A stretch of 64,000 bases of DNA from an uncultured Maribacter sp. (GCA_965367725.1 CBDUKE010000002.1:7091-71090), one strand, 5' to 3'. Counted from the stretch's first letter, positions 29,537-64,000 are shown. Program-made: numbers and translations. Notes: generated from the letters alone by a model not told the origin.

Positions 29537-29709
29537 TTTTTTACATTGATAATTTCTTGGTTATAAACCTAAAAAAAAGCTTAAAAAGACTAATTTAAAC
29601 TTAAAAATAAGGGTATTTTAAAAGTAATCACAATAAACATTTTTAATTTGGATTTAGGACGTTATTTTTGAGATCTCCAAATGAATTAATAAGGCGTTAC
29701 CAGATAATC

Positions 29710-30342
29710 ATGATCAAAGAACTGCAAGAAAATTACGGACATCTTTTTGAAGAGGAATTGATAAATGAAATTATCCAGACAGGAACGTATCGGGAAATTC
29801 GTGAAGGTCATAAACTTATGGAAATTGGCGATTATGTAAAGTCCATGCCACTGCTGATATCCGGAGTTATTAAAGTGTTAAGGGAAGATGGCGATGGTGA
29901 TGAATTACTTTTATATTTTCTAGAGCATGGCGATACTTGTGCCATGACACTTACTTGTTGCGTGGGGCAAACCAAAAGCGAGATAAGGGCTATTGCGGAA
30001 ACCAATGCAAAACTGATTATGATACCCGTCCAAAAAATGGAAGAATGGTTGGCAAAATATAGTAGTTGGCGCAATTTTGTGTTGCAGAGTTATCATAATA
30101 GGTTAAATGAAATGCTCGAAACTGTGGATAGCATTGCCTTTCTGAAAATGGATGATCGCCTGCTAAAATATATTAAGGACAAAGCCCGTGTAAACAATGA
30201 TAGTACGATAAGTACAACACATCAGCATATTGCATATGAATTACATACTTCAAGGGTAGTTGTTTCGAGATTGCTTAAAAAATTGGAGAATCTAGGAAAA
30301 ATAGAACTTCATAGAAACCAGATCAAATTAAACGATGATTAA
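29710..30342 (+). CDS. Crp/Fnr family transcriptional regulator
   Basis: The listed TTG at 29668 is unlikely, and ATG 29710 (MIKELQENYG...) gives the usual ~210 aa. It has a cNMP-binding-like beta-roll, and C-terminal HTH HQHIAYELHTSRVVVSRLLKKLENLGKI. A cysteine cluster C77-x5-C83-C84 (TCAMTLTCC, nt 29938-29961) is present. Confidence 0.85.
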   Translation: MIKELQENYGHLFEEELINEIIQTGTYREIREGHKLMEIGDYVKSMPLLISGVIKVLREDGDGDELLLYFLEHGDTCAMTLTCCVGQTKSEIRAIAETNAKLIMIPVQKMEEWLAKYSSWRNFVLQSYHNRLNEMLETVDSIAFLKMDDRLLKYIKDKARVNNDSTISTTHQHIAYELHTSRVVVSRLLKKLENLGKIELHRNQIKLNDD

Positions 30343-37468: not shown

Positions 37469-38701
37469 TTAATTTATTTTTTTTCCTTTTAAACTCATAT
37501 TTCTACTTACCATTGGTATGGGTATTCCTTTCAAAAGCATATTCCAATAAATCCACCTAAAAGCCAATTTACCCCAATGGTTGAATATACTTTCCTTTAA
37601 AAGCCTTAGAGGGCCTATACCTGCAATAGGGAAGGTGCCTTCTAAAGGTTCGTACTCGTAATTAAAATCAATTAAAAGTGCTTTGTTTTTGCCAGTTTCA
37701 ATAAAACAATTGGCATGGCCATCAAATTCCTCTTTTAAAGGTTTACCATCAATATACAATAAAATATTATCTGTTAAAGTTTCAGATGCAAAATGGGCAA
37801 CTGAGCCAGCTTTGGATGCGGGGACATTGGTAGCGTCACCGATTACAAATACATTTTCATGATCTATTGATTGTAATGTGCTATTATGTGTAGGCACAAA
37901 ATTTAATTCGTCACCCATACCTGAGCGTTCAATTACTTCATCGCCCATATTAGTAGGCACCGTTACAAGTAGATCGAAGTCAACCTTTCTCTCACCAAAA
38001 TCAATTATTTGATTGGTATCATTATCCACGCTTTCAATATTGAAATCAGTAACGACATTAATATTCTTTTCTTTCATTAAATGACCAAGAGCGGCTGTAG
38101 CTTTAGGTTTTGTGAATGCTCCACCAAGTGGGGTCACATATGTTAGTTCAACTTTGTCTCTCATTCCTTTTTTTGTGAAATAAGAATCGGCCAAGAAAAC
38201 GAATTCCAATGGTGCTACAGGGCATTTAATGGGCATTTCGGTAAAGTGAACGACCATTTTACCACCTTCCCATTCCCTTAATTTATTCCTAAGTGCCAAA
38301 GCACCTTCATAGGTGTAAAAATCAAAAACATTCTTATGCCAATTTTCACCTTTCATCCCTTCGGTTTCCTGTGGTGCAATTTTACAGCCTGTTGCAACAA
38401 TTAAAATATCATACTGTAAGGTTTCATCCTCTAATTGAACTTTGTTTTCTTCAGGAAAAATTTGTTCAATTTTCTTTTGAATATAGTTGACACCTTTGGG
38501 AATGAATTTATTACCCACTTTTTTTACCTGCTCTTCTGTATAGATATCAAAAGGTAGGAATAGGAATCCAGGCTGATAATAATGTGTTTTGTATTGATCT
38601 ACGATTGTAATTTTCCATTCTTTTTTCGGCAGTTTTTTCACCAAATGATTTGCCATCATCGTTCCTGACGTACCTGCACCTAATATCAATAAATTTTTCA
38701 T
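37469..38701 (-). CDS. Sulfide:quinone oxidoreductase-family FAD flavoprotein (SQR-like)
   Basis: GAGTSG dinucleotide fold, PIKCPVAPLEF (SQR-type Cys loop) and VFVIGDATNVPASKAGSVA. 410 aa. Confidence 0.7.
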   Translation of the reverse strand: MKNLLILGAGTSGTMMANHLVKKLPKKEWKITIVDQYKTHYYQPGFLFLPFDIYTEEQVKKVGNKFIPKGVNYIQKKIEQIFPEENKVQLEDETLQYDILIVATGCKIAPQETEGMKGENWHKNVFDFYTYEGALALRNKLREWEGGKMVVHFTEMPIKCPVAPLEFVFLADSYFTKKGMRDKVELTYVTPLGGAFTKPKATAALGHLMKEKNINVVTDFNIESVDNDTNQIIDFGERKVDFDLLVTVPTNMGDEVIERSGMGDELNFVPTHNSTLQSIDHENVFVIGDATNVPASKAGSVAHFASETLTDNILLYIDGKPLKEEFDGHANCFIETGKNKALLIDFNYEYEPLEGTFPIAGIGPLRLLKESIFNHWGKLAFRWIYWNMLLKGIPIPMVSRNMSLKGKKIN

Positions 38702-40840: not shown

Positions 40841-40908
40841 TGTAACAAAAGTAGCTGTTTGGGGTAGCTGGATTTCAGAACTTGCGAGTAGATTTAAAAA
40901 ATACCGCT

Positions 40909-41544
40909 ATGAAAATAATACGAAAATTTAGCATTGGGGCTTTATCTCTGATGCTACTCATAATCGCCACAAATCTGTCTTGTAATGATGACGAAGCCAA
41001 TACCTCTTTGAATGAATTGGAAAGTATTAATTTATCAACTGAAGATACAAACGCGCTACTTTTTATGCTGGAAGAAGAGAAATTGGCGCGAGATACGTAC
41101 GCGTATTTAGATGATTTATACGGAATAAATCAATTTTCGAACATTAAATTGAGCGAACAATCCCATATGAATGCGGTTGCCAAATTGTTAGATCAGTACA
41201 ATATAGATTATGCAATTCTTCCTTACGGCGAATTCGAAAACCAAGAAATGCAGGATTTCTATGATCAATTTGTTGAAAAAGGTCAAATTGATGCAATGAA
41301 TGCACTGGAAGTTGGTGCAACAATTGAAGATCTTGATATAGTTGATTTGGATGAATTTATTGAAGCGACATCAAATACCAGTATAATTTCGGTATTCGAG
41401 AGCCTCCAATGTGGTTCGCGTAATCATCTACGAAGTTTTGTAAGCGTCATTGAAAATGCCAATGAAACGTACGACCCCCAATTCTTGTCTATTGAGGCGT
41501 ATAATGAAATAATTGAGGATACTAATGAAAAGTGCGGCCTATAA
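40909..41544 (+). CDS. DUF2202 (ferritin-like) lipoprotein, paralog 1
   Basis: I prefer ATG 40909 (MKIIRKFSIGALSLMLLIIATNLSC lipobox) over the listed TTG at 40882. Signature LFMLEEEKLARDTYAYL...FSNIKLSEQSHMNAV...EVGATIEDLDI...SLQCGSRNHLRSF. Confidence 0.7.
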   Translation: MKIIRKFSIGALSLMLLIIATNLSCNDDEANTSLNELESINLSTEDTNALLFMLEEEKLARDTYAYLDDLYGINQFSNIKLSEQSHMNAVAKLLDQYNIDYAILPYGEFENQEMQDFYDQFVEKGQIDAMNALEVGATIEDLDIVDLDEFIEATSNTSIISVFESLQCGSRNHLRSFVSVIENANETYDPQFLSIEAYNEIIEDTNEKCGL

Positions 41545-41885: not shown

Positions 41886-42602
41886 ATGAAATTTAATAGA
41901 ATAATTAAAACACCCCTTATAGTACTTGGGTTCCTAACGTTTAGTCTGTTTATGGCCTGTAGTGATAATGGCGCAAATTTATTGGAAGAAGAAGCATTAG
42001 AGAACTCGATCGGTTTACAAGAGGATATAAATGTATCGGAAAACCCTGTTGATTCACAGGAGGAGCTAAATGTATTGGAAAATTCAGTTGATTCAGAAGA
42101 AGATATAAATGCTTTGTTATTTATGTTGGAGGAGGAAAAATTGGCTCGGGACACCTATATGTATTTGGATGAATTCTGGGGCATTAATCAATTTTCCAAT
42201 ATAAAGCTCAGTGAACAGTCCCATATGAATGCGGTAGCCAATTTATTGGATCAATACAATATTGATTATACCATATTGCCAGATGGAGAGTTTGAAAATC
42301 AAGAATTACAGGGTTTTTATAATCAGTTTGTTGAAAAAGGGCAGATTGATAGGGTAAATGCGCTTGAGGTGGGCGCAACTATTGAAGATCTTGATATTGT
42401 TGACCTCGAAAACTATATCAATGCAACCTCAAATGCCGATATTATATTGTTGTTTGAAAGTTTGCAGTGCGGTTCGCGCAATCATTTGAGAAGTTTTGTT
42501 AGGGGTTTGGAAAATTCAGGTGCTTCGTATACACCACAATATTTAACTCTTGAGAATTATAATTTAATCATTAATGACAATAGTGAGAAGTGTGGTCAAT
42601 AA
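41886..42602 (+). CDS. DUF2202 (ferritin-like) lipoprotein, paralog 2
   Basis: Lipobox FMAC. Same signature as paralog 1 across ~170 aa. The N-terminal acidic linker contains a 39-nt tandem repeat at 42028-42112. Confidence 0.7.
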   Translation: MKFNRIIKTPLIVLGFLTFSLFMACSDNGANLLEEEALENSIGLQEDINVSENPVDSQEELNVLENSVDSEEDINALLFMLEEEKLARDTYMYLDEFWGINQFSNIKLSEQSHMNAVANLLDQYNIDYTILPDGEFENQELQGFYNQFVEKGQIDRVNALEVGATIEDLDIVDLENYINATSNADIILLFESLQCGSRNHLRSFVRGLENSGASYTPQYLTLENYNLIINDNSEKCGQ

Positions 42603-51890: not shown

Positions 51891-52017
51891 GCATAAACTA
51901 CCATTTGTAGTCAGTTTTATTTTTGATTGTGCTAATCTTTGTTGTAAACGATTGGTGGGCCGGTAACCCAAGTTTAAATTATTTCATTTAAATTTGACCG
52001 ACCTACATCAAATTATA

Positions 52018-55000
52018 ATGAAGAACATACTAGCAAAATTCCTTAAACTTTCCACGCCTTTATTCAATACCCGAGCCGCAGGGCTCTATATATTGCTTTT
52101 TGCAGCGGCAATTGGTATTGCAACATTCATAGAGAATGACTTTGGCACCTCTGCGGCACAAAAGGTCATTTATAAATCGTGGTGGTTTGAGCTTTTACTA
52201 TTGCTGTTCGGAATAACAATTATTGTGAACATTTTTAAGTTCAGGATGATCCAACAAAAGAAATGGCCTTTATTGCTATTTCATGGGGCGATTATTATAA
52301 TTATAATTGGGGCAGGTGTTACAAGATATTTTGGTTTTGAAGGCATTATGCATATTCGGGAAAACGATGCAGCCAACAGCTTCTTATCCTCCAATACATT
52401 CTTAAAATTCAAAGTTAACAAGAACAACCAAACTTTTGATTTTGATGAGCCCGTACTCTTTGCGTCCTTGGGAAACAATGGCTGGAAGGGCGAGTACTTG
52501 ATCGATGGAGATTTAATTGCTGTTGAGGTGCAGGAATTCATTCCCAATCCGAAACAAGTGCTGACCGAAAGTATGGATGGTAGGGCCACGCTCCAAATTG
52601 TAGTTTCTGGGGCAAATGGTCGGGAAGAGTATTATATTGGTGAAGGGCAGACTAAAAGAATTAGGAATGTCATTTATAATTTCAAAAATACCCAGCTGCC
52701 GGATGCCATAAATATTCTTTTTAGGAACGATTCATTACTGTTCACTTCCAATAAGACCTTGACCCATATGACTATGGCTACTCAGTTGAGGGATACCATA
52801 ATTCCTTCAGGTACTTATACCCCCTTAAAATTAAACTCTTTATATTCCGATGGGGTCAATCAATTTGTCTTAACCGATTTTAAAAAGCAAGGTAAAGTCA
52901 ACATTGAATCGGAAGATTCAAAAGTCCGAAATGAAAGTTTGACAGCCCTATTATTGGATATCTCTGTAAACGGCAATAAGAAAGAAGCCTATGTTTATGG
53001 GAGCAAGGGAGTAGAAGGTAGACCACAACAACTAAATTTTGACGGCCTTGATTTAGCGGTTTCTTATGGTGCTAAAGAAATCACCGTCCCTTTTCAAGTA
53101 AAATTGAATAAGTTTATTATGGAGAAGTACCCAGGGACCAATAGTGCTGCTTCCTATGCGAGTGAGGTTACGTTGATCGATGATAGCAAAAATGTTAAAA
53201 TGGACTACCGCATTTTCATGAACAATATCTTGGATTATGGGGGATATCGATTTTTTCAATCTTCCTTTGATAAGGATGAGAAAGGAACGTATTTGAGTGT
53301 AAATTTTGACTTTTGGGGCACTTGGATATCTTATTTAGGCTATGCTTTGTTGACGCTAGGTATGGTATTGGTATTCTTCAGCAAAAAAACAAGATTTTAC
53401 CAAGTCTCCCAGAAGATCAAAAAACTGAGGGCAAAGTCATCCACTTTCGTACTTGCCTTGTTTTTATCAACTTCATTTTCCTATGCCCAGTCGCAAGCCT
53501 TTGCTGACAATGCTGTAGCTATTGAACATGCCGATGCATTCAGCAAATTGGTGGTTCAGGATTTTAAAGGTAGAATGAAACCGATGCATACGCTTTCTCG
53601 CGAGATCATGCGAAAGTTGGCGCGTAAGGAAAGTATGTACGACCTGACTGCAGACCAAATTCTGCTTAGCATGTTTGTCAATAAAGAAGATTGGTATAAG
53701 GCGGGGATAATTAAATTGGGCAAGCATCAGGATATCCATAAAAGCCTAAGCGTCGCAGGGGATTACGCCTCTTATGCTGATTTTTTTAAGACCAATGGGG
53801 AATATAAGTTTAGAGATGAAGTTCGTCGCGTATATGGCTTGGAACCCATAGACAGAGGTGTCTATGAGAAAGAATTATTGAAGATTGATGAAAGAGTCAA
53901 TATCCTGAATATGGTATTCTCGGGTAGTTTGTTGAAAATCGTCCCGAACCCCAATGATTCAAATAACACTTGGGAGTCTAATGCCACAAGTAATCACAGT
54001 GCCAATGACGGTCATAATCACAGTACAGTTGGCAAAGACTTTTTCAGCTCTTATACAACTGCATTAAAAGCGGCAGTTGTTTCGAGCGATTATACACAGG
54101 CTGGGCAACTCCTTAATGAATTAGCAGCTTACCAGCGTGAAAAGGGCGGTGATATCATACCAAAGGAATCAAAAATAAGCGCCGAAATTTTATTGAATAA
54201 AATGAATGTCTTTTCCCGTTTGGCAGGGTTTTATGCTCTTTTGGGAGTTTTCTTTTTGTTCTTTTTGTTCCTATCGGTCTTTAAGCCAACGATTAATTTA
54301 AACAAGGTGTATTTGGTTCTGTTCTCTTTGGTTATTCTTGGATTTGTCCTTCACACTATAGGATTGGGTCTGCGTTGGTATGTTTCTGGCAGGGCACCAT
54401 GGAGTAACGGATATGAGTCTATGATCTATATTGCCTGGACTTCGACTCTGGCTGGTGTGTTGTTCACCCGTAAGTCTTTTGGTGGGTTGGCAGCAACCAT
54501 GGTTTTAGCCGCAACAATTCTATTGGTATCCATGTTGAGTTTTCTTGATCCGGAAATCACCCCTTTGGTCCCGGTTCTAAAATCGTATTGGTTGACCATT
54601 CATGTTTCTCTTATAGCTGGTAGTTACGGGTTTCTTATGCTCGGAGCAATCATCGGTATTATCAATTTGATTCTCATGGTATTTATGAAGGAATCAAACA
54701 AGAAAAGAGTAAAACGAATTATTCAGGAAATGTCCCATATCAGTGAATTGACCTTGATTGGCGGACTGTTTATGGTCAGTATAGGCACCTATTTAGGAGG
54801 TGTTTGGGCCAATGAATCCTGGGGAAGATATTGGGGCTGGGATGCCAAGGAAACCTGGGCTTTGGTGACCATATTGGTCTATGCTTTTATCTTGCATATG
54901 CGGTTGATTCCAAAGTTAAAAGGATTGTTTGCTTATAATGTAGCCACAACCTTCGGATTGGCCTCTGTTATCATGACCTATTACGGCGTAAACTATTATT

Positions 55001-55134
55001 TATCCGGATTACATTCCTATGCCACGGGGGATCCAATACCTATTCCAAATTGGGTGTATATCGTAGTAGTTTCCATCATTGGTATAAGCGTGATAGCTTA
55101 CTTTAAAAAGCGGAAATATCCAGGTATTTCGTAG
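52018..55134 (+). CDS. ccsBA: Fused system II cytochrome c synthase CcsBA (ResB-like + CcsA)
   Basis: N-terminal ResB-like region. The C-terminal CcsA has the Trp-rich heme-handling motif [21 protein letters not shown]. I prefer ATG 52018 over the TTG at 51994. Confidence 0.85.
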   Translation: [1038 protein letters not shown]

Positions 55135-55151: not shown

Positions 55152-56390
55152 CTACGATGGTTGTTCTTCTAGAAAAAATACGCCCTGTTCTGCGATAGTG
55201 TTTTCCATTTCTTTAGTTGATATGGGTCTAAGCGTCTTTTTTCTTAACTTTCTTACGACCCTATCCGTTACGGTTTTTACATGCTGCTTATTCAATTCTT
55301 GCGAATTATCGTCAAAATATTGAACCACTTTTTGGTTGACTATTATTTTATATTCAGCTAAAAACGCACGTAAAGGCGCTTCTTGCAGCCATTCTGTATA
55401 GGTTGTAAGTTCTTCGGTTAGTATACCGGTTACCTCACCAATAGCTGCGAATCTTTTTTCTTTGGTTTCTTCCAAGTCTACGGAAATAGTATCTAAATCA
55501 TAGAATACTATATGCTCATTTTGGGCCAAGGATTTTTCAATGTTGCATGGCATAGCCAAATCAATCAATAAGACCTTATTACTATTTTGAGGGACTTGCT
55601 TAACCAGTTGTGGACAATTACTTGCCGCACTTATTATGACATCAAATCCCTTAAAATCATTATCCAATACCCGTTGCCACTTATAGGTTTTACATTCATG
55701 GGTATTAGCCAATGCTATAGCTTTGTCCTCGGTACGATTACAGACATAAATGTTTCGAAAATTAAATTTTGTATTGTATTTAAATAACTGTTTTACAATA
55801 TCCCCGGCCCCAATAAACAGTATTTTCTTGGTCTTTAAAGAAGCTTTATCAAAGGTATCACTGATAACTTTCAATGACTTGTAGGCCACCGATGTAGTAC
55901 CATCCCTAAAATGGGTTTCGTTACTGATACGTTTATGACTCTTAAAAACGGTCTGCATCGCACGTTCCAACAAGGACCCCTGTAATTGATGTGCAATTGA
56001 AAATTGATATGATTTCTTAATTTGATGAACTATCTCTGCATCACCAAGTACCGAAGAAACCAAACCCGAAGTAACTTTTAAAAGATGTCTTACGGTTTCT
56101 TCGGTTTCATTACCAAAACTGAACAACTGTTTATTTTCGGCACTACTTTTCCTTGCTTTTAAATCAATTAGAAAATTTCGTACGACCTGTGCAGAAGTGG
56201 TCTCCGATTCAAAATATATTTCTGTCCGGTTGCAGGTGACCAATAGCAATAGTCCCGATATATCGGTAAATACAGGGCAGATACGTGCTACCAAATCACT
56301 TTTTTCTTCTTCTGGGATATGGTATATCTCCCTTTGGGTAACAGAAGCTGTATGGTGTGAAATACTTATAAACCGTAATGATTTGTTCAT
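55152..56390 (-). CDS. hemA: Glutamyl-tRNA reductase
   Basis: Catalytic-Cys motif TCNRTEIY, GDAEIVHQIK and the NADPH fold GAGDIVKQL. 412 aa. Confidence 0.9.
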   Translation of the reverse strand: MNKSLRFISISHHTASVTQREIYHIPEEEKSDLVARICPVFTDISGLLLLVTCNRTEIYFESETTSAQVVRNFLIDLKARKSSAENKQLFSFGNETEETVRHLLKVTSGLVSSVLGDAEIVHQIKKSYQFSIAHQLQGSLLERAMQTVFKSHKRISNETHFRDGTTSVAYKSLKVISDTFDKASLKTKKILFIGAGDIVKQLFKYNTKFNFRNIYVCNRTEDKAIALANTHECKTYKWQRVLDNDFKGFDVIISAASNCPQLVKQVPQNSNKVLLIDLAMPCNIEKSLAQNEHIVFYDLDTISVDLEETKEKRFAAIGEVTGILTEELTTYTEWLQEAPLRAFLAEYKIIVNQKVVQYFDDNSQELNKQHVKTVTDRVVRKLRKKTLRPISTKEMENTIAEQGVFFLEEQPS

Positions 56391-56486: not shown

Positions 56487-56885
56487 CTATTCCTTTAAAG
56501 TACGTACATAATTAACTACCAACCACATATCTTCTACTTCTGGAATCTTTTTTTCGTAATTTGGCATATCGTCCCTTCCTATATAACTCTTATAGAAAAT
56601 TGCTCCATCAGATTGTGCCTGAAATTTGGCGGTAGAGAAATCACCCAAATCTCCTTCTACTTCATCAGCTTTGGTTCCATCACCATAACCTTCTTTTCCA
56701 TGACAGGATTTACAATGCTTGTTGTAGAGCGATTTTCCTATGTCCAAGTCAACAGTAGGATCTGTCGGATTTTTCATTTTTTCATATTTTTCAGGGACTT
56801 TCCATTCTTCTTGCACCATAGAGGTAAAGGAATACAAAGCAAATGATACGATTCCGATAAGTAATAAAGTCTTAAATGTTTTCAT
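56487..56885 (-). CDS. Secreted monoheme class I c-type cytochrome
   Basis: Signal peptide, CKSCHGKEG heme motif and a downstream Met (DDMPNY). Confidence 0.8.
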   Translation of the reverse strand: MKTFKTLLLIGIVSFALYSFTSMVQEEWKVPEKYEKMKNPTDPTVDLDIGKSLYNKHCKSCHGKEGYGDGTKADEVEGDLGDFSTAKFQAQSDGAIFYKSYIGRDDMPNYEKKIPEVEDMWLVVNYVRTLKE

Positions 56886-56959
56886 AAGTTTAATATATAT
56901 TGATTTTAATTCTTTCTTTTCAAAAATAGTGCCGAATTGGCTTTTTTTTTTAAAAGGTT

Positions 56960-57862
56960 TTAATCACTCTCTGTTTTTATGGCTAATTCTGTTCCTTCTT
57001 TTCTAATCTTGAATAAGTTGATGATTGTGTATACATAATTTGCCCAAACACCTACCAATAAGATGGTTAATACGGCATACATCCAAATTGGTGCCGCTTC
57101 GGACCACAACGTATTATTTTCAACCTTAATTTGTTTGTTGAAAACACCCCAATTTACTATTTTCTTTTGAATTACATTTCCAAATTCATCGTGGTCCTCG
57201 ATACTTGTATAAACGACAAGGTCACCATTAATATCCCCAGGGATGTCTGTTGGCATTTCAAACTCATAAACACCATTTTCGATGGTGCCTTCATTAACGT
57301 TCATTTTAGAAAGCATGCCGCCTACTGAAATGAAAACATCGGCCTCTTCCAAAGGTATTTTCACACCCAAACTATCAAGGGTGTATGCCTTTACTACGGC
57401 GGTTTTAACACTATCTTTTTCGATTAAGTTTAATTCTAAATTCAGATCTTGAACACTGATTTCCTCTTCTTCACCATCCAATCCATCTGAACCTTCAAAA
57501 ATTGCTTTAAAATTTATTTTTCCCTCGCTATCGACCAAGTAATCATGATCCTTGGGAATTGTAATTTGGGCGACTCCATCTTTAGAAGTTTTTGAAACTC
57601 CCAACAGGACTTCCTCATCTTCCCATACATTAAAAAATTTAATCTCTGCCTCATAAACAGGAACCCTGTCTTTTCTATCTTCTTTGTTTGCAGCAATAAA
57701 ACTTGCCTCAAGTATTCTTGTATTATCGGGTTGCTTAATTGTGTTACAGTTAAACCTTATTCGATAATTACTTAAATCAACTTCTTGGGATTGGGCATTT
57801 GTAGCAATGAACAACCCAAATAACACCATTATGACCGTATATCTAAACAAACTAGTTTTCAT
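56960..57862 (-). CDS. Unknown secreted, C-terminally membrane-anchored protein (X1), third gene of FeS-NrfD module 1
   Basis: Signal peptide, beta-rich body and a C-terminal TM helix (PIWMYAVLTILLVGVWANYVYTIINLF). It overlaps the NrfD stop by 4 nt. It is a paralog of 60645-61517 (shared EDEEV.LG...T...G block and the same topology). Confidence 0.55.
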   Translation of the reverse strand: MKTSLFRYTVIMVLFGLFIATNAQSQEVDLSNYRIRFNCNTIKQPDNTRILEASFIAANKEDRKDRVPVYEAEIKFFNVWEDEEVLLGVSKTSKDGVAQITIPKDHDYLVDSEGKINFKAIFEGSDGLDGEEEEISVQDLNLELNLIEKDSVKTAVVKAYTLDSLGVKIPLEEADVFISVGGMLSKMNVNEGTIENGVYEFEMPTDIPGDINGDLVVYTSIEDHDEFGNVIQKKIVNWGVFNKQIKVENNTLWSEAAPIWMYAVLTILLVGVWANYVYTIINLFKIRKEGTELAIKTESD

Positions 57863-59208
57863 TTTTGTTGATTTTGGGTAAGGTGTTTATGACTAATTCT
57901 AACTTTGTGCTCTCTTTCGTAATCAATGATACCTGACATAGGTATAATGGGTACAAGTTTCATGATCAAAATAAAGAACAAAACAAAGGCTGCTAACCCT
58001 GCAAAACTCAATGCCCATTCAACCCAGGTGGCTGTGTAATGTATAAACTCCGGTCGCGTATCCTGGATTGGCAAATAGGGTGTTTCCAGAGTGGGTACCA
58101 CTATTAAATATCTGTTTAACCATAACCCCAAAACGGCAATAACAGCTGCGAAGGTGATGGATTTTATAGTTCTGAATTTTTTAAAGAATATAATGACTAT
58201 GGGCACTAATACACCAATGTAATTTGCAAAAATAAATTCCCAAAAATACCGGGTAAAAAGGGTATCCAACAGATTTATATCATGAATCTTATGGCTAAAC
58301 CACCTAGAAAAATATTCACTAAATGTAAAGTAGCCGAACAACAATGAAATAACCAAAAGAATAACCCCCGCACCTATAAAATGTACTTTGCGAATGTAAT
58401 GGTCCAACTTTAAATATTTTCGAATAAGGAACATGGCGATAATGATCACACTAATGCCAGAGTACAGGCCTGCGACAATAAAATAAGGTGCAAAAATAGT
58501 ACTGTTCCATCCGGGTTGTAGCGTTAAACTGAATATCCAGGCCAAAACGGTATAAGCAACAATAGCCAAAGCAATGATCATGGCAGACATAGTTCGGGTT
58601 ATTTTATGTAACCTTACGCGTTGGGTGGGGGTGTCCTGATAACCAATAGCCAAAGTTTTGTATAGTTTCTGCCTCCAATTAGGTGCATCTTCACTATTAT
58701 CGCGAAGCATTGCAAAATCAGGGATAAATGTTAGATAGAGGTAAATAAAACAGCCTATCAAATCTGTGATAATGGCGATAATATCCCAAGTAATCGGTGA
58801 TTGTATCCTAGGGTAAATAAACAGATAATGTAACCTATCCAACCTGCCGATACATAACAAAATAAATATAGGACCTACAATCAAGGATAGTACGGTAATT
58901 ATTTCAACGATTCTGGAAACTGAATTCTTCCAGGGTGTTTTAAAGAAGTGTAATATTCCTGAAATGAATGCCCCAGAATAGCTTAAACAAACAAAGAAAA
59001 TAAAATTAATAATGTAAATACCCCAGACCACATTGTCACGCATTCCAGTAACTTCATGTCCTTTTACAACTTGAAGCACAAATGCGACCAAACCCAATAA
59101 AACAAATCCCAATAAAATTCCAATCCATATTTTTGACCATTTGCTCGATTTTAGCAACATTGGTAAAAATTCTTTGACTAACTCCCTTTTCCTAACATCT
59201 ATATCCAT
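57859..59208 (-). CDS. NrfD/PsrC family quinone-interacting membrane subunit (module 1)
   Basis: 449 aa polytopic membrane protein with an NrfD-like helix pattern, adjacent to an NrfC-like FeS protein. Confidence 0.75.
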   Translation of the reverse strand: MDIDVRKRELVKEFLPMLLKSSKWSKIWIGILLGFVLLGLVAFVLQVVKGHEVTGMRDNVVWGIYIINFIFFVCLSYSGAFISGILHFFKTPWKNSVSRIVEIITVLSLIVGPIFILLCIGRLDRLHYLFIYPRIQSPITWDIIAIITDLIGCFIYLYLTFIPDFAMLRDNSEDAPNWRQKLYKTLAIGYQDTPTQRVRLHKITRTMSAMIIALAIVAYTVLAWIFSLTLQPGWNSTIFAPYFIVAGLYSGISVIIIAMFLIRKYLKLDHYIRKVHFIGAGVILLVISLLFGYFTFSEYFSRWFSHKIHDINLLDTLFTRYFWEFIFANYIGVLVPIVIIFFKKFRTIKSITFAAVIAVLGLWLNRYLIVVPTLETPYLPIQDTRPEFIHYTATWVEWALSFAGLAAFVLFFILIMKLVPIIPMSGIIDYEREHKVRISHKHLTQNQQK

Positions 59209-59217
59209 AGTAAAGAG

Positions 59218-60210
59218 TTATTTAGTTTGAATTTTACCCTTTGCTTTAAGGTCTTGAACATAAGGCACATCTTTATAGCGTTCAATAATTTCCTCATCAA
59301 CATCAAAACCGCGTTCCAACGGGAATTGTCGGTTAACTGCAGGCAGATAGTATACATTGGGTTTTGTGCCCAGATGCTCTAAGTGTCTGTAACCTCCCCT
59401 GTCATTGATCAATTCTGAGAACCGGACAGTTTCTTCGCCGTTCGTTACCATATCCTCATTCTTATCACCGAAGTAAATTACACCCATGGGGCATGCTGTT
59501 GCACAATGAGGCAACTTGCCTTGGCGAAGCATGTCTGGACAAAAATCACATTTCATTACAGTACCTTCTGCAGCCGGGACACTGGTTTCAGGAGAATAGG
59601 GTTGGTCCGTATCATCAAACTTGGCTTTGTGACTCCAATTGAACTGACGAGCCGAATAAGGGCAACTTGTAATACAGAATTTACATCCTATGCAGCGGTC
59701 ATTATCAATTAGAACGATGCCGTCATCGCGCTTAAAAGTAGCCCCTGTGGGGCAAACCGTTACACATGGTGGTTCGTCACAATGAAAACAAGGTTTAGGA
59801 AACCAGTAAGGGGAAGTTTCTTCATTGTTCTGAATAAGCTGCACTTTCATAAACTCTTCATGGTAGTCGAGATTATGTGCTTTTTGACAACTTTCAACAC
59901 AATTTCTGGCATTTTTACATTTGGCCAAGTCAATGACCATCACAAATTTTCTGTTAGGAATTCCCTCTCTTGATTCAGCCGGCGTTATATGTGCTTCGGG
60001 ATACTTATTAATACTTTCAGCATCTACCTCGACCATTTTACCATCAGAGGTCAGTACACGAATTTTTTCGCCAGAGGCTTTTAGTTCTTCGGGGGATGAC
60101 AAATTTGAAAGAAACGAAGCGCTTGCAACTGTAGTCACACCTGATAATAATCCTAGCTTTAAGAATTTACGCCTATTGGTGCTATCATTTTGTGTTTTAT
60201 CGTTCGCCAT
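59218..60210 (-). CDS. Tat-exported 4Fe-4S ferredoxin-type subunit (NrfC/PsrB/HybA-like, module 1)
   Basis: Twin-arginine signal (NRRKFLKLGLLSG). Cluster motifs CKNARNCVESC (3 Cys), CFHCDEPPCVTVCP, CIGCKFCITSCP and CDFC...CATACP. Confidence 0.8.
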   Translation of the reverse strand: MANDKTQNDSTNRRKFLKLGLLSGVTTVASASFLSNLSSPEELKASGEKIRVLTSDGKMVEVDAESINKYPEAHITPAESREGIPNRKFVMVIDLAKCKNARNCVESCQKAHNLDYHEEFMKVQLIQNNEETSPYWFPKPCFHCDEPPCVTVCPTGATFKRDDGIVLIDNDRCIGCKFCITSCPYSARQFNWSHKAKFDDTDQPYSPETSVPAAEGTVMKCDFCPDMLRQGKLPHCATACPMGVIYFGDKNEDMVTNGEETVRFSELINDRGGYRHLEHLGTKPNVYYLPAVNRQFPLERGFDVDEEIIERYKDVPYVQDLKAKGKIQTK

Positions 60211-60282
60211 AATTCTAAGAATACATATATAATTATATGTTAATTTGAAAGTCTAAAATTAGGTTTTACTATTACTTTTAAA

Positions 60283-60298
60283 TATGACAATTATCATA
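60283..60298. promoter_or_regulatory. Second palindrome type TATGACAATTATCATA, promoter-proximal to FeS-NrfD module 1
   Basis: It matches 38789-38804 at 14 of 16 positions. It has the same relative position, between the GTAAC site and the operon start. Confidence 0.4.
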
Positions 60299-60301
60299 TT
60301 T

Positions 60302-60317
60302 GGTAACATATGTTACA
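60302..60317. promoter_or_regulatory. Palindromic operator GGTAACATATGTTACA (site 6)
   Basis: The GTAAC-N4-GTTAC core is perfect. It lies 92 bp upstream of the FeS subunit ATG (60210). Confidence 0.55.
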
Positions 60318-60644
60318 TAAGCTCAAATCTGTTCTTTTATCCTTCGGAATCTTGGGGATTTTCAGAAACAAACCATATCAAAATTGGCATTTATTCGTAA
60401 AGTTTGCGCTCCAATTTTTAATTTGTATTTTGTTGAAAGATTATGAAAATCAGAGGTTTCCAGAGTTTTATTCCCTAAAGGTTTTCAAACTTAGGAATCT
60501 TGTTGCTTATGTTGAATCTGCAATTTCAACTAAACCTTAATTTAGTAACAGGGTTACCAGTTTTTCTATTATAATGCAAAAATAGCGAACAAATTATTCG
60601 ATATTTTTATCTCGGCATATTTAAAATTATAACTTCTTGGAATG

Positions 60645-61517
60645 CTAAAATTTTGCTATTTTAAATAAATTCAGTGTTAAATAAATAATAAAAACCCATA
60701 TACCAAATATTATTAAATTTGGCAATATAAGCAGGAATAAAGGTGTTTTATTTCTTGGCGACCACATGGTTCGTTGATCAAAAGTTGATTCATCAACTAT
60801 TGGCGTTCCAATAGGAGCATTAACCAAAGCTTTTACAGTCCCATATTTATCACTATCATTTAAAACCACTTCAAAAGTCAAGTTACCATCGACCCCAGGT
60901 ATTTCTTCTTCGATAGGTACGGTTATAGATCCATTTTCATCGGTATAATTAAATTCCTCACCAATTCTTAGGGGCATAAACAACCGCTGTACCAGTACAT
61001 CCAATGATTCTCCAATAATTGGACTGCCTGTACCAGCATCAATCAGGGTTGCTGTCATATAATTAATACTGTCCTTAGTGACTAGATTGGCTTTAATATT
61101 CGCATTTTTGAAACTAATTTTTTTTGAAGCTCTCTTATAGGAGTCGTTACCCTTAAACGAAACACCTAGATTATAGGTATTCGTTGAGTCAGGTTGAATA
61201 GTGCTCAAATTTTTGAATACAAATCTACTTTCACCTTTTATATCAGTAGTTGTATTTCCCAATATAACTTCCTCGTCTTCAAATCCATAATAAACGGAAA
61301 TAGGAATATCTGAAACCCCGATATTCCGTTTTTCTATTTTTGCAGTAGCTTTAATTTTCAAATAAATGTCACCTTCCATTATTTTAACATAATCAGCTCC
61401 TAATCTAATTCTGTTTTTTTCAGTTTCCTGTGCGTACAAATTCTGAAAACCTATTGTAAATAGTAACAAACCCAGGAATCCAAGTAAAATCATGCGAAAT
61501 TTTATTCTATTTTTCAT
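60645..61517 (-). CDS. Unknown secreted, C-terminally membrane-anchored protein (X2), third gene of FeS-NrfD module 2
   Basis: Paralog of X1 with a signal peptide, beta-rich body and C-terminal TM (PLFLLILPNLIIFGIWVFIIYLTLNLF). It overlaps the NrfD stop by 4 nt. Confidence 0.55.
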   Translation of the reverse strand: MKNRIKFRMILLGFLGLLLFTIGFQNLYAQETEKNRIRLGADYVKIMEGDIYLKIKATAKIEKRNIGVSDIPISVYYGFEDEEVILGNTTTDIKGESRFVFKNLSTIQPDSTNTYNLGVSFKGNDSYKRASKKISFKNANIKANLVTKDSINYMTATLIDAGTGSPIIGESLDVLVQRLFMPLRIGEEFNYTDENGSITVPIEEEIPGVDGNLTFEVVLNDSDKYGTVKALVNAPIGTPIVDESTFDQRTMWSPRNKTPLFLLILPNLIIFGIWVFIIYLTLNLFKIAKF

Positions 61518-62836
61518 GATTCGTTGATTTTATTCGTTACCAATATCTCTTGTTCATCGGCTGTTCTTTGAATGGGGATCACCGGTAAATAGCGCACCAA
61601 TATGGTAATTATCAGTAAAGCCATTGTTAATGTCGCAACAGTAATCAACCATTCATGCATACTTGGAAAATAATGACGCCAAGATTCCGGCACCCCTTGA
61701 ATTGGCAAAAATGGATGTAAAAGGGTTGGGGTAACAATTAAATAACGTTTCCACCAAGAGCCAACAACCACTAGTAAACCAATCCAAAACATTGGCAATG
61801 GTTTTCTTCCTTTTTTAAATAACAAAACCAAAATCGGCACAATTAAGCCCCCAATTATTACAAACCAAAATAAGGGCGCATACTCCCCTGAAACCAGGAC
61901 ATTCATATGTGTAATTTCTTCCTTTTTAGAAGTAAATTCGGGCATTAAATATTCATTAATATTAAAGTACAGGTAAATTAAGCAGGTCAACACTAAAAAT
62001 TTACCAAGTTTATCGAAATGATAGTCAGTTATATATTTCTCTAATTTATAAGCTCTTCGGATAACATATACAACCGTAACAAGCGCTCCAACACCTGCAA
62101 CAGAAGCACCTGAAATAAAGTAGGCGCCCATATTGGTGCTATCCCACCCAACTCTGAATAATGTTGAAAATAACCACGCATCAATTGTTTGCAGCATAAA
62201 ACCAGCAGGAATAGTTAAAATGGCAATTATTTGAATTGATTTAAGTTGAATTTTCTTTTGGGCATCATTCCCTGTCCAGTTCAATGAAAGTTTACCATAC
62301 CATTTACTTAATTTCGGTTTGGATTTATTAAAATGTTTCTTAAGTATAGCTAAATCTGGGAGTAGTGGGAAATACAATAATAATAGACTAATTACAATAT
62401 AAGTAGGTATTATAATGACATCCCAAATAATAGGTGATTGCATTCTACCATGAATAAATAAATACAATAATCTATCCGGTCTTCCCATATCGATCATAAT
62501 GGTGATACCAGCCATAATTATTGATGCCAAAGAAATTATTTCAGCAATTCTCACAATAGGTGTTCTCCAGGAATTGTTGGTTAGTCTTAAAACTGCCACC
62601 GTCACGGTGCCAACAAAACTGGTTGCCACAAAAAAAACAAAATTGGAAATATAAATTCCCCACAAAGCATAATCGTTCATATTGGTTACCACTTGTCCCT
62701 GTATTATCTGATCAACATATGCGATAATTCCAATAACACTGAATATTATTAGTGTCCAAGTCCAAATAATACCTGCCTTACCAAATTTTCTTGGTGCTAA
62801 ATCGTTCATTAATTGGTCAGAAACTTTCATGATCAT
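61514..62836 (-). CDS. NrfD/PsrC family quinone-interacting membrane subunit (module 2)
   Basis: 440 aa and colinear with 57859-59208 (for example WGIYI.NF.FF, RY.IV.PTL..P.LPIQ). Confidence 0.75.
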   Translation of the reverse strand: MIMKVSDQLMNDLAPRKFGKAGIIWTWTLIIFSVIGIIAYVDQIIQGQVVTNMNDYALWGIYISNFVFFVATSFVGTVTVAVLRLTNNSWRTPIVRIAEIISLASIIMAGITIMIDMGRPDRLLYLFIHGRMQSPIIWDVIIIPTYIVISLLLLYFPLLPDLAILKKHFNKSKPKLSKWYGKLSLNWTGNDAQKKIQLKSIQIIAILTIPAGFMLQTIDAWLFSTLFRVGWDSTNMGAYFISGASVAGVGALVTVVYVIRRAYKLEKYITDYHFDKLGKFLVLTCLIYLYFNINEYLMPEFTSKKEEITHMNVLVSGEYAPLFWFVIIGGLIVPILVLLFKKGRKPLPMFWIGLLVVVGSWWKRYLIVTPTLLHPFLPIQGVPESWRHYFPSMHEWLITVATLTMALLIITILVRYLPVIPIQRTADEQEILVTNKINES

Positions 62837-63816
62837 TCTGGTTTATCAACTGATTTAAAATCCGTGAAATCTTTCAATCCATCTTCAAAATCAACCAATC
62901 TGTCAACCGGAGGTAAATAAAATACGCTCGGTTTTGTACCTAAACCTTCCATTAACCGATAGCCATGCTTATCTTCTAAAAGTTTACTCAGGCGTACCGA
63001 TTCTTCTCCATTGGTTACGGTATCCTCATATTTATCCCCAAAATAAAAAACGCCATTGGGGCAAGCGGTAACACAGTGGGGTAATATGTTTTCCTTAATT
63101 GTATGTGGACAAAAATCGCACTTATCAACCGTTCCCTTCACGCTTGGCATACCCGTATACTCAATGGAGTTGTGTTCACGATGTTCCATTTCCATATTCA
63201 TGGTAATTTCACTTGTGCCACCATATTCAGGTTCACTCCAATTAAAAACCCTTGTAGAATAAGGGCATGCAGCCATACAGAAACGGCATCCAATACAACG
63301 CTCGTTATCAATCAAAACCAGGCCGTCCCTTCTTTTGAATGTGGCATCGACCGGGCAAACAGTCACACAGGCCGGATGATCACAATGCATACAAGTAGTG
63401 GGCATCCAATAAGGTGCAGTATCTTCATCTTCCTGCATTTTATACACTTTGAGCCATGCATGTTCTCCTGTAATATAGTGGTGTTTATTGCAGGCAACTT
63501 GGCATTTTAAAGCATTTTTACACTTCGCGAGATCTATGACCATGACAAATTTTCTATTTGGCATACCCTCTCGTAAATTGTATTTCTTATCTTGATCTTG
63601 GGAGTGTTTAACTTCAACAACTTCGGATGAATCAACTTGGATCAATGTTCCATCAGTAGTCATCAATTCCATTGTTTCACCTGCACTGATATTCGTTTTT
63701 GCGTGTAATTTAGCAGCAATTTTTGATAGGCCAATGCCACCAATAACTGTAGCAAGGCCCAATTTTACCCCATCATAAAGAAAATAACGCCTAGAATTCT
63801 TATTGTTATCTTCCAT
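62833..63816 (-). CDS. Tat-exported 4Fe-4S ferredoxin-type subunit (module 2)
   Basis: SRRYFLYDG signal. Same four cluster motifs as module 1 (CKNALKCQVAC, CMHCDHPACVTVCP, CIGCRFCMAACP, CDFC...CVTACP). Confidence 0.8.
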   Translation of the reverse strand: MEDNNKNSRRYFLYDGVKLGLATVIGGIGLSKIAAKLHAKTNISAGETMELMTTDGTLIQVDSSEVVEVKHSQDQDKKYNLREGMPNRKFVMVIDLAKCKNALKCQVACNKHHYITGEHAWLKVYKMQEDEDTAPYWMPTTCMHCDHPACVTVCPVDATFKRRDGLVLIDNERCIGCRFCMAACPYSTRVFNWSEPEYGGTSEITMNMEMEHREHNSIEYTGMPSVKGTVDKCDFCPHTIKENILPHCVTACPNGVFYFGDKYEDTVTNGEESVRLSKLLEDKHGYRLMEGLGTKPSVFYLPPVDRLVDFEDGLKDFTDFKSVDKPE

Positions 63817-63838
63817 GATGCATCAGAATTAATTGTTA

Positions 63839-64000
63839 TTACATTTTTTTGCCTAGCCAGTTAAGAAATGAAGTATTAGAAATATTTTTCTTGATAATTT
63901 TTGATTTTTTTATCGTACTAACTTTAACTTTTACAGCAGTACCATCAGGTTTTAATAAGGTTTGGTATTCTTCTTCTTTAGGAATGGATATGTAGTTGGG
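63839..64000 (-). CDS. C-terminal end of an unidentified ORF upstream of module 2 (partial, not in the supplied track)
   Basis: Minus-strand frame open from the window edge: ...PNYISIPKEEEYQTLLKPDGTAVKVKVSTIKKSKIIKKNISNTSFLNWLGKKM, with stop TAA at 63841-63839. It ends 22 nt before the FeS subunit start. Too short to assign. Confidence 0.35.
   Translation of the reverse strand, partial: PNYISIPKEEEYQTLLKPDGTAVKVKVSTIKKSKIIKKNISNTSFLNWLGKKM

Follow-up and report, generated by a model that had tools for sequence, protein, structure and literature searches.

The stretch of DNA considered here (the window) consists of 64,000 nucleotides from an uncultured Maribacter sp. (GCA_965367725.1, CBDUKE010000002.1:7091-71090). 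Toward its end, from 56,487 to 64,000, it carries two tandem modules, each of which encodes an iron-sulfur subunit exported by the twin-arginine translocation (Tat) pathway (FeS), a membrane subunit of the NrfD family (NrfD), and a secreted, C-terminally anchored protein (X); one of the modules is followed by a gene for a monoheme cytochrome c. The FeS-NrfD-X triad and the cytochrome together probably form a minimal menaquinol:cytochrome c oxidoreductase of the NrfCD/alternative complex III (ACIII) type, a reading held with moderate confidence. It is built upon domain identities, gene order, the pattern of cysteines, the fold of X and a shared operator. The triads are not orphans, because they are part of a cluster conserved in the Bacteroidota in which a hexaheme cytochrome and an outer-membrane barrel are encoded just past the end of the window.

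The Two Modules

Open reading frames (ORFs) in the window were taken from a six-frame list, and the encoded proteins were scanned with Pfam and NCBIfam. The features of the region are as follows.

63839-64000, minus strand: 3' end of tat88 (88 aa, Tat signal), which heads the module 2 sub-block; the full ORF is L001:9712-9978 on the extended contig described below
62833-63816, minus strand: FeS2, Tat-exported NrfC/DsrO-like ferredoxin with 15 Cys, 327 aa (Pfam, NCBIfam, Cys alignment)
61514-62836, minus strand: NrfD2, ActC-like integral membrane quinone-site subunit, 440 aa (Pfam, solved-homolog search)
60645-61517, minus strand: X2, secreted tandem Ig-like protein with a C-terminal transmembrane anchor, paralog of X1, 290 aa
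60303-60316, no strand assigned: palindrome GTAACATATGTTAC, candidate Crp/Fnr-family operator, about 93-106 nt upstream of the FeS1 start
59218-60210, minus strand: FeS1, Tat-exported NrfC/DsrO-like ferredoxin with 15 Cys, 330 aa
57859-59208, minus strand: NrfD1, ActC-like membrane subunit with ~10 transmembrane helices, 449 aa
56960-57862, minus strand: X1, signal peptide, two β-sandwich (Ig-like) domains and a C-terminal transmembrane helix, 300 aa
56487-56885, minus strand: monoheme class I cytochrome c with one CXXCH, 132 aa, the conserved fourth gene of the module (Pfam Cytochrom_C)
55152-56390, minus strand: hemA (glutamyl-tRNA reductase), 412 aa, often co-oriented downstream of the module
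51994-55134, plus strand: fused ResB-CcsA (system II cytochrome c biogenesis), a convergent neighbor that recurs near the cluster in many loci

Both FeS proteins match Fer4_11 (79 and 73 bits) and further 4Fe-4S models of Pfam, and the Pfam NrfD model (PF03916, cutoff 25.8) recognizes NrfD1 with 117 bits and NrfD2 with 95 bits. Between the modules the paralogs are 48% identical for FeS, 33% for NrfD and 26% for X (for X, E = 1e-21 over the full length); each module has its own X, co-diverged with that module. An earlier note on this DNA, made from the window sequence, had described two tandem paralogous triads, and the ORFs, Pfam matches and paralog identities agree with it in every detail. 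The junction sequences also agree: ATGA overlaps occur at FeS2/NrfD2, NrfD2/X2 and NrfD1/X1, and the FeS1/NrfD1 spacer is 9 nt. Likewise, module 1 is preceded by the palindromic operator and followed, by ORF and Pfam calls, by the cytochrome c and then hemA.

The interval between X2 and FeS1 (60211-60644, 434 nt) holds no gene, and no cytochrome c pseudogene or remnant was found in it by tblastn, so that one cytochrome c may serve both modules in this genome. In 18 other genomes the second module does have its own cytochrome, a second monoheme protein at the place of this gap that is 48-76% identical to the cytochrome encoded after X1.

Conservation of the Cluster

The distribution of the cluster was surveyed with one genome per species, which gave 80 loci in which ORFs were called and matched to the window proteins. 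The ratios given here have as denominator the loci whose contig leaves room for the gene. Among the genera are Lutibacter, Ulvibacterium, Seonamhaeicola, Maribacter, Croceivirga, Eudoraea, Mariniflexile, Gaetbulibacter and others. X is preceded by an NrfD1-type gene in 74/74 loci and by an FeS1-type gene before that in 65/65; the triad that the earlier note had picked out as a unit thus keeps its order throughout. Conservation extends to the monoheme cytochrome c, which follows X in 77/77 loci, and to three upstream genes, DUF5777 (49/51), c130 (46/51) and the hexaheme cytochrome (43/51). The second module is less frequent (12/37) and is preceded by tat88 in 11 of those 12 loci.

Three more distant loci of the Bacteroidota type were reached through an X representative ~31% identical to X1, and one of these is in the metagenome-assembled genome 'Bacteroides sp. 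SM23_62_1'. Their gene order is DUF5777, a multiheme cytochrome, a cytochrome b of the Ni_hydr_CYTB type, FeS, NrfD, X and a monoheme cytochrome c, with ResB/CcsA nearby. Together with the survey, these loci define the conserved unit as FeS-NrfD-X-cytochrome c within a cytochrome/outer-membrane-barrel cluster. The inserted cytochrome b (~200 aa; L088:6057-6668, L089:6051-6668, L090:1550-2092), which lies between the multiheme cytochrome and FeS, would give the operon a second membrane protein with the potential to interact with quinone. In the limited set of literature searched, no published description of the cluster was found.

The Iron-Sulfur Subunits

Among solved structures FeS is closest to PsrB, followed by ArrB and the FeS domain of ActB (ActB ~770-945), and of the curated models DsrO scores highest (171 and 172 bits, against a cutoff of 200). 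A Tat motif of the RRxFL type is present in 88 of 91 family members (69 FeS1 and 22 FeS2). All 91 have exactly 15 invariant cysteines. Groups II-IV are complete, with 12 invariant Cys, and the second Cys of group I is missing from every member; group I reads C-K-N-A-x-x-C-x3-C in nearly all of them, one FeS2 having Glu for Ala. The three-cysteine first motifs remarked upon in the earlier note (CKNARNCVESC and CKNALKCQVAC) are both present and turn out to be a property of the whole family.

Three-cysteine CxxXxxC motifs, as found in NarH, SdhB and ActB, ligate a [3Fe-4S] cluster, and by this analogy such a cluster is predicted for group I. Group I builds FS1, the membrane-distal cluster, which faces the catalytic subunit in molybdoenzymes. 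The subunit would then contain three [4Fe-4S] clusters and one [3Fe-4S] cluster, the latter at the distal FS1 position. In ActB the three-cysteine motif is in group III (CvGtRyC), whereas in FeS1 and FeS2 it is in group I.

The position of the altered cluster bears on an alternative in which the triads are the ordinary membrane module of a polysulfide, thiosulfate or tetrathionate reductase, with the molybdopterin subunit at another locus of the genome. The solved protein matched best by FeS is PsrB, the public names of cluster members ('molybdopterin-containing oxidoreductase family iron-sulfur binding subunit', 'NrfD/PsrC family molybdoenzyme membrane anchor subunit') refer to molybdoenzymes, and a 'polysulfide reductase' is listed in a Lutibacter genome paper; yet FS1, which would normally face the Mo subunit, is short of a ligand in all 91 members, none of the more than 80 loci, 10-kb flanks included, has a molybdopterin gene, cytochromes are the conserved partners, and NrfD resembles ActC (155 bits) rather than PsrC, which goes undetected at E < 0.01. 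This alternative is very improbable, and the public annotations of the cluster are generic or, as with 'polysulfide reductase', misleading.

The NrfD Subunits

The best solved homolog of NrfD1 is ActC of Rhodothermus marinus (155 bits, E = 4e-44, residues 23-425 of NrfD1), and NrfD2 matches ActC with 128-132 bits (E = 4e-36). Identity to ActC is 26-27% over ~400 residues. ActC proteins of Roseiflexus (6LOD), of structure 8K9E and of F. johnsoniae score similarly. ACIII subunits are the only solved structures matched; ActF appears only at 1e-3 to 1e-5, and PsrC was detected by neither NrfD1 nor NrfD2 at E < 0.01. The curated NCBIfam models give a different order, with DsrP, QrcD and HybB at the top, all far under their cutoffs, and no ActC model among the matches. 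Comparison of 76 NrfD1-type and 24 NrfD2-type sequences with ActC, using the residue list of Calisto and Pereira (PMC8076601), showed that S164, D169, R119, E122, D191, Y270, E326 and R395 of ActC are conserved in both families. Judged from these alignments, NrfD1 and NrfD2 are ActC-like proteins of ~10 helices that form a subfamily of their own, in which the two paralogs differ consistently at the quinone site.

A hydrogenase module of the HybAB type was considered and rejected, since HybA scores 82-87 bits against a cutoff of 263 and HybB 66 against 450, and hydrogenase genes are absent.

X and the Monoheme Cytochrome c

The earlier note had placed X in no known family, and that assignment holds. 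X1 and X2 have no Pfam or NCBIfam match. The database relatives of X1 number 583, all named 'hypothetical' and mostly from Flavobacteriaceae, and an X profile gathers proteins of ~290-300 aa throughout, which fall into 932 clusters at 50% identity, 317 of them with E < 1e-30. An AlphaFold2 model of X1, made from 121 diverse homologs (pLDDT 93.6), has a signal peptide, two β-sandwich domains and a 40-residue C-terminal helix. Foldseek searches with this model returned generic tandem Ig-like domains only (transglutaminase, complement, GH2 accessory domains), with no ACIII, Dsr or Hyd subunit among the matches, and the X profile gave weak Ig-like matches only (intimin, collagen adhesin) against sequences of the Protein Data Bank. 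What is conserved in X is Gly, Trp, Pro and a stretch 'LW..AP.WM' at the membrane interface. The alignment has no conserved Cys, His or Met in the soluble part, and the lack of conserved cofactor ligands points to a non-redox accessory subunit.

The 132-aa cytochrome c is closest, among solved proteins, to a Kuenenia diheme partner protein and c552 (1e-13 to 1e-15). It is also related to ActE (~3e-6) and to cbb3-CcoP domains.

The Contig Beyond the Window

An exact-sequence look-up of FeS2 located the same contig in several metagenome assemblies of the European Nucleotide Archive (L001-L006). On the same strand beyond 64,000, going away from FeS2, the genes are tat88, DUF5777, c130 and the hexaheme cytochrome. 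The partial ORF at 63839-64000, which the earlier note had left without an identity, is the end of tat88. This 88-aa protein has a twin-arginine signal and a stretch 'LLKPDGTAVKV', and it shows weak similarity to the extension at the N-terminus of FeS1 and FeS2 (Tat signal, then L-x-x-DG-x-x-V-x-V); no Pfam or NCBIfam family matches it. The DUF5777 protein (294 aa) is an outer-membrane barrel (Pfam 'membrane bound beta barrel', 257 bits). Upstream of it on the extended contig, c130 is a monoheme lipoprotein of 130 aa and the hexaheme protein (MHC390) a lipoprotein of 390 aa with six CXXCH motifs.

These genes change one part of the earlier note, which had reported modules with no catalytic partner. 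No molybdopterin subunit is encoded in the window, the extended contig or 83 related loci taken with as much as 10 kb of flanking sequence, and no ActB-type large subunit in the window or more than 80 related loci; to that extent the statement stands. The absence of a multiheme cytochrome is an artefact of the window edge, since one lies just beyond 64,000. The suggestion that a catalytic subunit might be encoded past that edge is likewise borne out in part: the gene upstream is a hexaheme protein of the NrfA/OcwA superfamily, not a canonical molybdoenzyme.

Past a 460-nt gap beyond the hexaheme gene, L001:890-6554 encodes two giant cytochromes (612 aa with 23 CXXCH motifs, 483 aa with 19), together with a lipoprotein of 265 aa and a putative outer-membrane protein of 527 aa. 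The giant cytochromes and their two neighbors are not conserved beside the module in the other 80 loci. Their presence suggests extracellular electron transfer in this organism.

The Hexaheme Cytochrome

A profile of 60 hexaheme homologs matched OcwA of Thermincola potens (6I5B) at 1e-9, octaheme nitrite reductase at 9e-7 and NrfA proteins at 4e-6; Foldseek gave the same ranking. OcwA aligns over the last hemes and the helices of the C-terminus, where both have a GxHNP motif. Octaheme nitrite reductase aligns colinearly over five heme motifs, the second heme motif of the hexaheme protein lying opposite the catalytic CXXCK. No CXXCK occurs in the hexaheme family. It has six CXXCH motifs and exactly six more invariant histidines (H76, H176, H243, H274, H296, H373), a number compatible with six bis-His hemes, so that catalysis is not assured. 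OcwA itself works at the cell surface as a terminal reductase, and nitrite and hydroxylamine are among its substrates (PMC6703420).

The relationship raises an Nrf-like alternative, in which the triads are the NrfCD equivalents of an Nrf-type pathway of the Bacteroidota, and nitrosative stress induces the hexaheme protein as a reductase of nitrite, NO or hydroxylamine. The match to NrfA proteins, the five heme motifs, C-terminal helices and 'G-x-HNP' aligned with octaheme nitrite reductase, the second heme motif opposite CXXCK, and the substrates of OcwA all speak for it, as does the operator discussed below, which equals a consensus described for NO-responsive regulons. However, the hexaheme family has CXXCH at all six motifs and CXXCK at none, and its six extra histidines would be enough to give each heme two His ligands and leave no site open. 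Lipoprotein anchors and an outer-membrane barrel are foreign to Nrf systems, and the equivalog scores are low (NrfC 121 and 106 bits for a cutoff of 378, NrfD 24 for 348). A dedicated nitrogen-oxide reductase system of this kind is considered unlikely, if less so than the other rivals.

The Operator and Its Regulon

The palindrome upstream of FeS1 is one of a set. The window contains eight copies of the 14-nt consensus GTAACnnnnGTTAC, where 1.1 would be expected.

21633, 30450, 36352, 38820, 40664, 42714, 45445 and 60303: GTAACnnnnGTTAC sites in the window
29668-30342, plus strand: Crp/Fnr-family gene, candidate regulator, followed by its own palindrome site

The sites are upstream of genes for a type III sulfide:quinone reductase (SQR), a SorAB-like sulfite dehydrogenase, a FadL-like porin and an RND efflux operon, of FeS1, and of DUF2202 and DUF6799 genes; the operator also precedes a DsrE-like gene in this genome. 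On the extended contig a further GTAACnnnnGTTAC site, at L001:6846, precedes the hexaheme gene by 170 nt. Other genomes have the palindrome upstream of the hexaheme gene, of FeS1 and, in several loci, of hemA. With the palindrome in front of both the hexaheme gene and FeS1, the layout reads as two operons with one operator: operon A reads as hexaheme, c130, DUF5777, tat88, FeS2, NrfD2 and X2, and operon B as FeS1, NrfD1, X1 and cytochrome c (with hemA). A scan for sigma-70 promoters and terminators, which is ill-suited to Bacteroidota promoters, gave counts not above those of shuffled sequences.

The window consensus is identical to the published HcpR2 motif (Rodionov et al., PMC1274295), which is linked to nitrosative-stress regulons. 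The Crp/Fnr protein of the window has Val where HcpR2 has Pro, at a position aligned by eye to E181 of CRP. Because of this replacement and of the breadth of the regulon, the HcpR2 identity is a lead, not proof, and the replacement counts against the Nrf-like alternative. The window gene was also compared with the Crp/Fnr gene beside the distant cluster L089, and orthology was rejected (28% identity over 64 residues).

Two other features of the regulon may be noted. Over its whole length, the NCBIfam model 'type III sulfide quinone reductase, selenoprotein subtype' recognizes the ORF at 37469-38701 (minus strand) with 660 bits (cutoff 525), yet this ORF is uninterrupted and ends in ...KGKKIN*. 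Tandem DUF2202 paralogs (40882-41544 and 41886-42602, plus strand; 168 and 180 bits) are followed by a DUF6799 protein; the first of the two paralogs and the DUF6799 gene each have a palindrome site upstream.

Proposed Function

If the subunits assemble, the route of electrons may be sketched as follows. The ActC-like NrfD subunit would bind and oxidize menaquinol on the periplasmic side of the membrane, and possibly also provide proton paths. Electrons would move along the four clusters of FeS and leave by way of the family-specific distal [3Fe-4S] cluster, at the site where a molybdoenzyme would normally dock. There the small cytochrome c would be reduced, and it could in turn feed the co-regulated lipoprotein cytochromes, c130 and the hexaheme protein, at the DUF5777 outer-membrane barrel. 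X, held at the membrane by its anchor, most likely stabilizes or caps FeS in place of a large subunit and may form the docking surface for the cytochrome. The direction of flow is suggested by the quinol-oxidizing ActBC and NrfCD homologs and by the potential gap expected between menaquinol and cytochrome c. Class I cytochromes c usually have high potentials, so that the path from menaquinol to cytochrome c is the downhill one. The earlier note had offered a minimal, ACIII-like quinol:cytochrome c module as one reading, and its logic gains support from ActC as the best match of NrfD and from the constant position of the cytochrome after X.

Several observations weigh against a menaquinol:cytochrome c oxidoreductase. 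The quinol-site residue H139 of ActC is replaced without exception, by Cys in the NrfD1 family and by Asp in the NrfD2 family, and D253 is Ile in NrfD1 and Leu in NrfD2. Of the four residues of the quinol site only two are kept, along with roughly half of those of the channel, so that the quinone chemistry may differ from that of ActC. The top NCBIfam scores belong to DsrO and DsrP, a module whose own function is unknown. The binding of X or of cytochrome c to FeS-NrfD is something that we infer. At the outer end, the hexaheme model is of moderate quality (pLDDT 77) and matches solved structures weakly, at TM 0.3-0.4. Finally, the related Qrc module is reported to run in the opposite direction (PMC13059093).

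This last point leads to an alternative in which the triad works as a Qrc-like cytochrome c:menaquinone oxidoreductase, to which outer-membrane or periplasmic cytochromes would bring electrons from an external or periplasmic donor such as Fe(II), reduced sulfur or hydroxylamine. QrcCD, reported in the same paper as an FeS/NrfD dimer reducing menaquinone, is homologous. The altered quinone-site residues leave the direction open, and the operator is common to the type III SQR, SorAB-like and DsrE-like genes of this genome. The NCBIfam scores for QrcC (122-126 bits) and QrcD (43-63 bits) show the kinship but are far under the Qrc cutoffs (400 and 570 bits), and no QrcB-like subunit is encoded. 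The conserved partner is a monoheme cytochrome c of class I and no low-potential c3, and from such a heme menaquinone reduction would be uphill. SQR reduces quinone unaided, and the sulfur genes are not conserved neighbors in other loci. The reverse direction is judged quite unlikely, and both it and a polysulfide reductase type module with a remote Mo subunit are less likely than a menaquinol:cytochrome c oxidoreductase. The second reading in the earlier note, a quinone reductase taking electrons from periplasmic sulfur oxidation, has a weak basis: in this genome the operator is indeed shared with sulfur genes, but the conserved neighbors are cytochromes and a barrel.

For the menaquinol:cytochrome c oxidoreductase, the terminal acceptor could be a nitrogen oxide, an extracellular or metal acceptor, or a sulfur compound. 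The first follows from the homology of the hexaheme protein to octaheme nitrite reductase and NrfA and from the HcpR2-like operator, and the second from its homology to OcwA, from the lipoproteins with their outer-membrane barrel and from the giant cytochromes adjoining in this genome. The sulfur option comes from the co-regulated sulfur genes of this genome only. A more elaborate arrangement can be put forward tentatively, as a possibility with the odds against it. The triad and cytochrome would be a four-subunit analog of complex III in the Bacteroidota, not recognized before, with X replacing the ActB1/molybdoenzyme subunit, and would form the inner end of a trans-envelope conduit that has the hexaheme protein, c130 and DUF5777 at its outer end. 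If so, the conduit would be a route for extracellular or outer-membrane respiration unrelated to the Mtr/Pcc porin-cytochromes, and a new type for Gram-negative bacteria.

Modules of the NrfD family are a recurrent link between the quinone pool and periplasmic redox chemistry, and several of them, DsrJOP included, are without an assigned function. The present cluster is widespread in marine and sediment Flavobacteriaceae and other Bacteroidota and contains two functionally unannotated families, X and DUF5777. If the proposal is correct, a respiratory branch would be added to a phylum studied mostly for polysaccharide degradation, with a bearing on sediment Bacteroidota under low-oxygen, sulfidic or nitrosative conditions. 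It would also supply an experimental model for NrfD-type quinol oxidation that is far smaller than ACIII. The existence of cultured carriers (Lutibacter, Maribacter arenosus, Seonamhaeicola, Ulvibacterium marinum) makes the question directly testable.

Comparison with Known Systems

ACIII, with structures from R. marinus (6F0K) and F. johnsoniae (6BTM), resembles the modules in ActC, the protein to which the NrfD subunits are most similar, in the FeS domain of ActB that aligns with FeS, in an ActE-related monoheme cytochrome c and, presumably, in quinol:cytochrome c activity. The modules differ in being without the molybdopterin-like ActB1 domain, the pentaheme ActA, ActD and ActF, in the replacement of H139 and D253 of ActC, and in having the extra Ig-like X. 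ActB is a protein of ~950-1040 aa, while the FeS proteins are 327-330 aa and no gene for such a large protein is present in the flanks. Each module has one NrfD gene, and the multiheme neighbor is NrfA/OcwA-like, not ActA-like.

Modules of the NrfCD/PsrBC type (NrfABCD, MccACD/SirACD, PsrABC, TtrABC) likewise pair a Tat-exported ferredoxin of four cysteine groups with a cofactor-less, quinone-binding protein of the NrfD family, and FeS and NrfD show the same features, with PF03916 over its cutoff and the two genes adjacent wherever both could be scored. In Nrf and Mcc/Sir the electron partner is, as may be the case here, a periplasmic multiheme cytochrome of the NrfA/MccA superfamily. In contrast to these systems, the NrfD subunit here is the 10-helix ActC/DsrP type and not the 8-helix NrfD/PsrC type, FeS has 15 Cys instead of 16, X and a dedicated monoheme cytochrome are added, and the partner lipoprotein cytochromes are encoded beside an outer-membrane barrel. 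All equivalog scores of the modules are under cutoff. A Mo-bisPGD subunit gene, which accompanies the FeS and anchor genes in Psr, Phs and Ttr systems, is absent from all 83 related loci.

DsrOP provides the highest-scoring curated models (DsrP with 68-110 bits, besides DsrO as given above). DsrP has ten helices and DsrO a predicted three to four clusters; the function of that module is itself unresolved. Both scores are under the equivalog cutoffs (350 bits for DsrP), there is no dsrAB context, and no DsrM, DsrK or DsrJ homologs are encoded in the window or flanks. 'DsrOP paralog' was rejected as a primary label on the grounds of these scores, the missing Dsr context and the better full-length match to ActC.

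The hexaheme protein keeps the last hemes and the three-helix C-terminus with GxHNP of OcwA, NrfA and octaheme nitrite reductase. It differs from OcwA and NrfA in having six hemes (versus nine or five), in the absence of CXXCK, and in having a lipoprotein signal and a collagen-like GxDG linker.

The earlier note knew of no characterized complex of this composition. The idea of molybdopterin-free NrfCD pairs is already in the literature: pairs without a catalytic subunit have been proposed to reduce periplasmic multiheme cytochromes (PMC3534657; PMC10861901). The composition itself, FeS-NrfD-X-cytochrome c with a large unannotated tandem-Ig family, is new. So are the absence of one FS1 ligand in every member, an ActC-like subfamily whose quinone site is altered, and the conserved partnership with an OcwA/NrfA-like hexaheme cytochrome and DUF5777.

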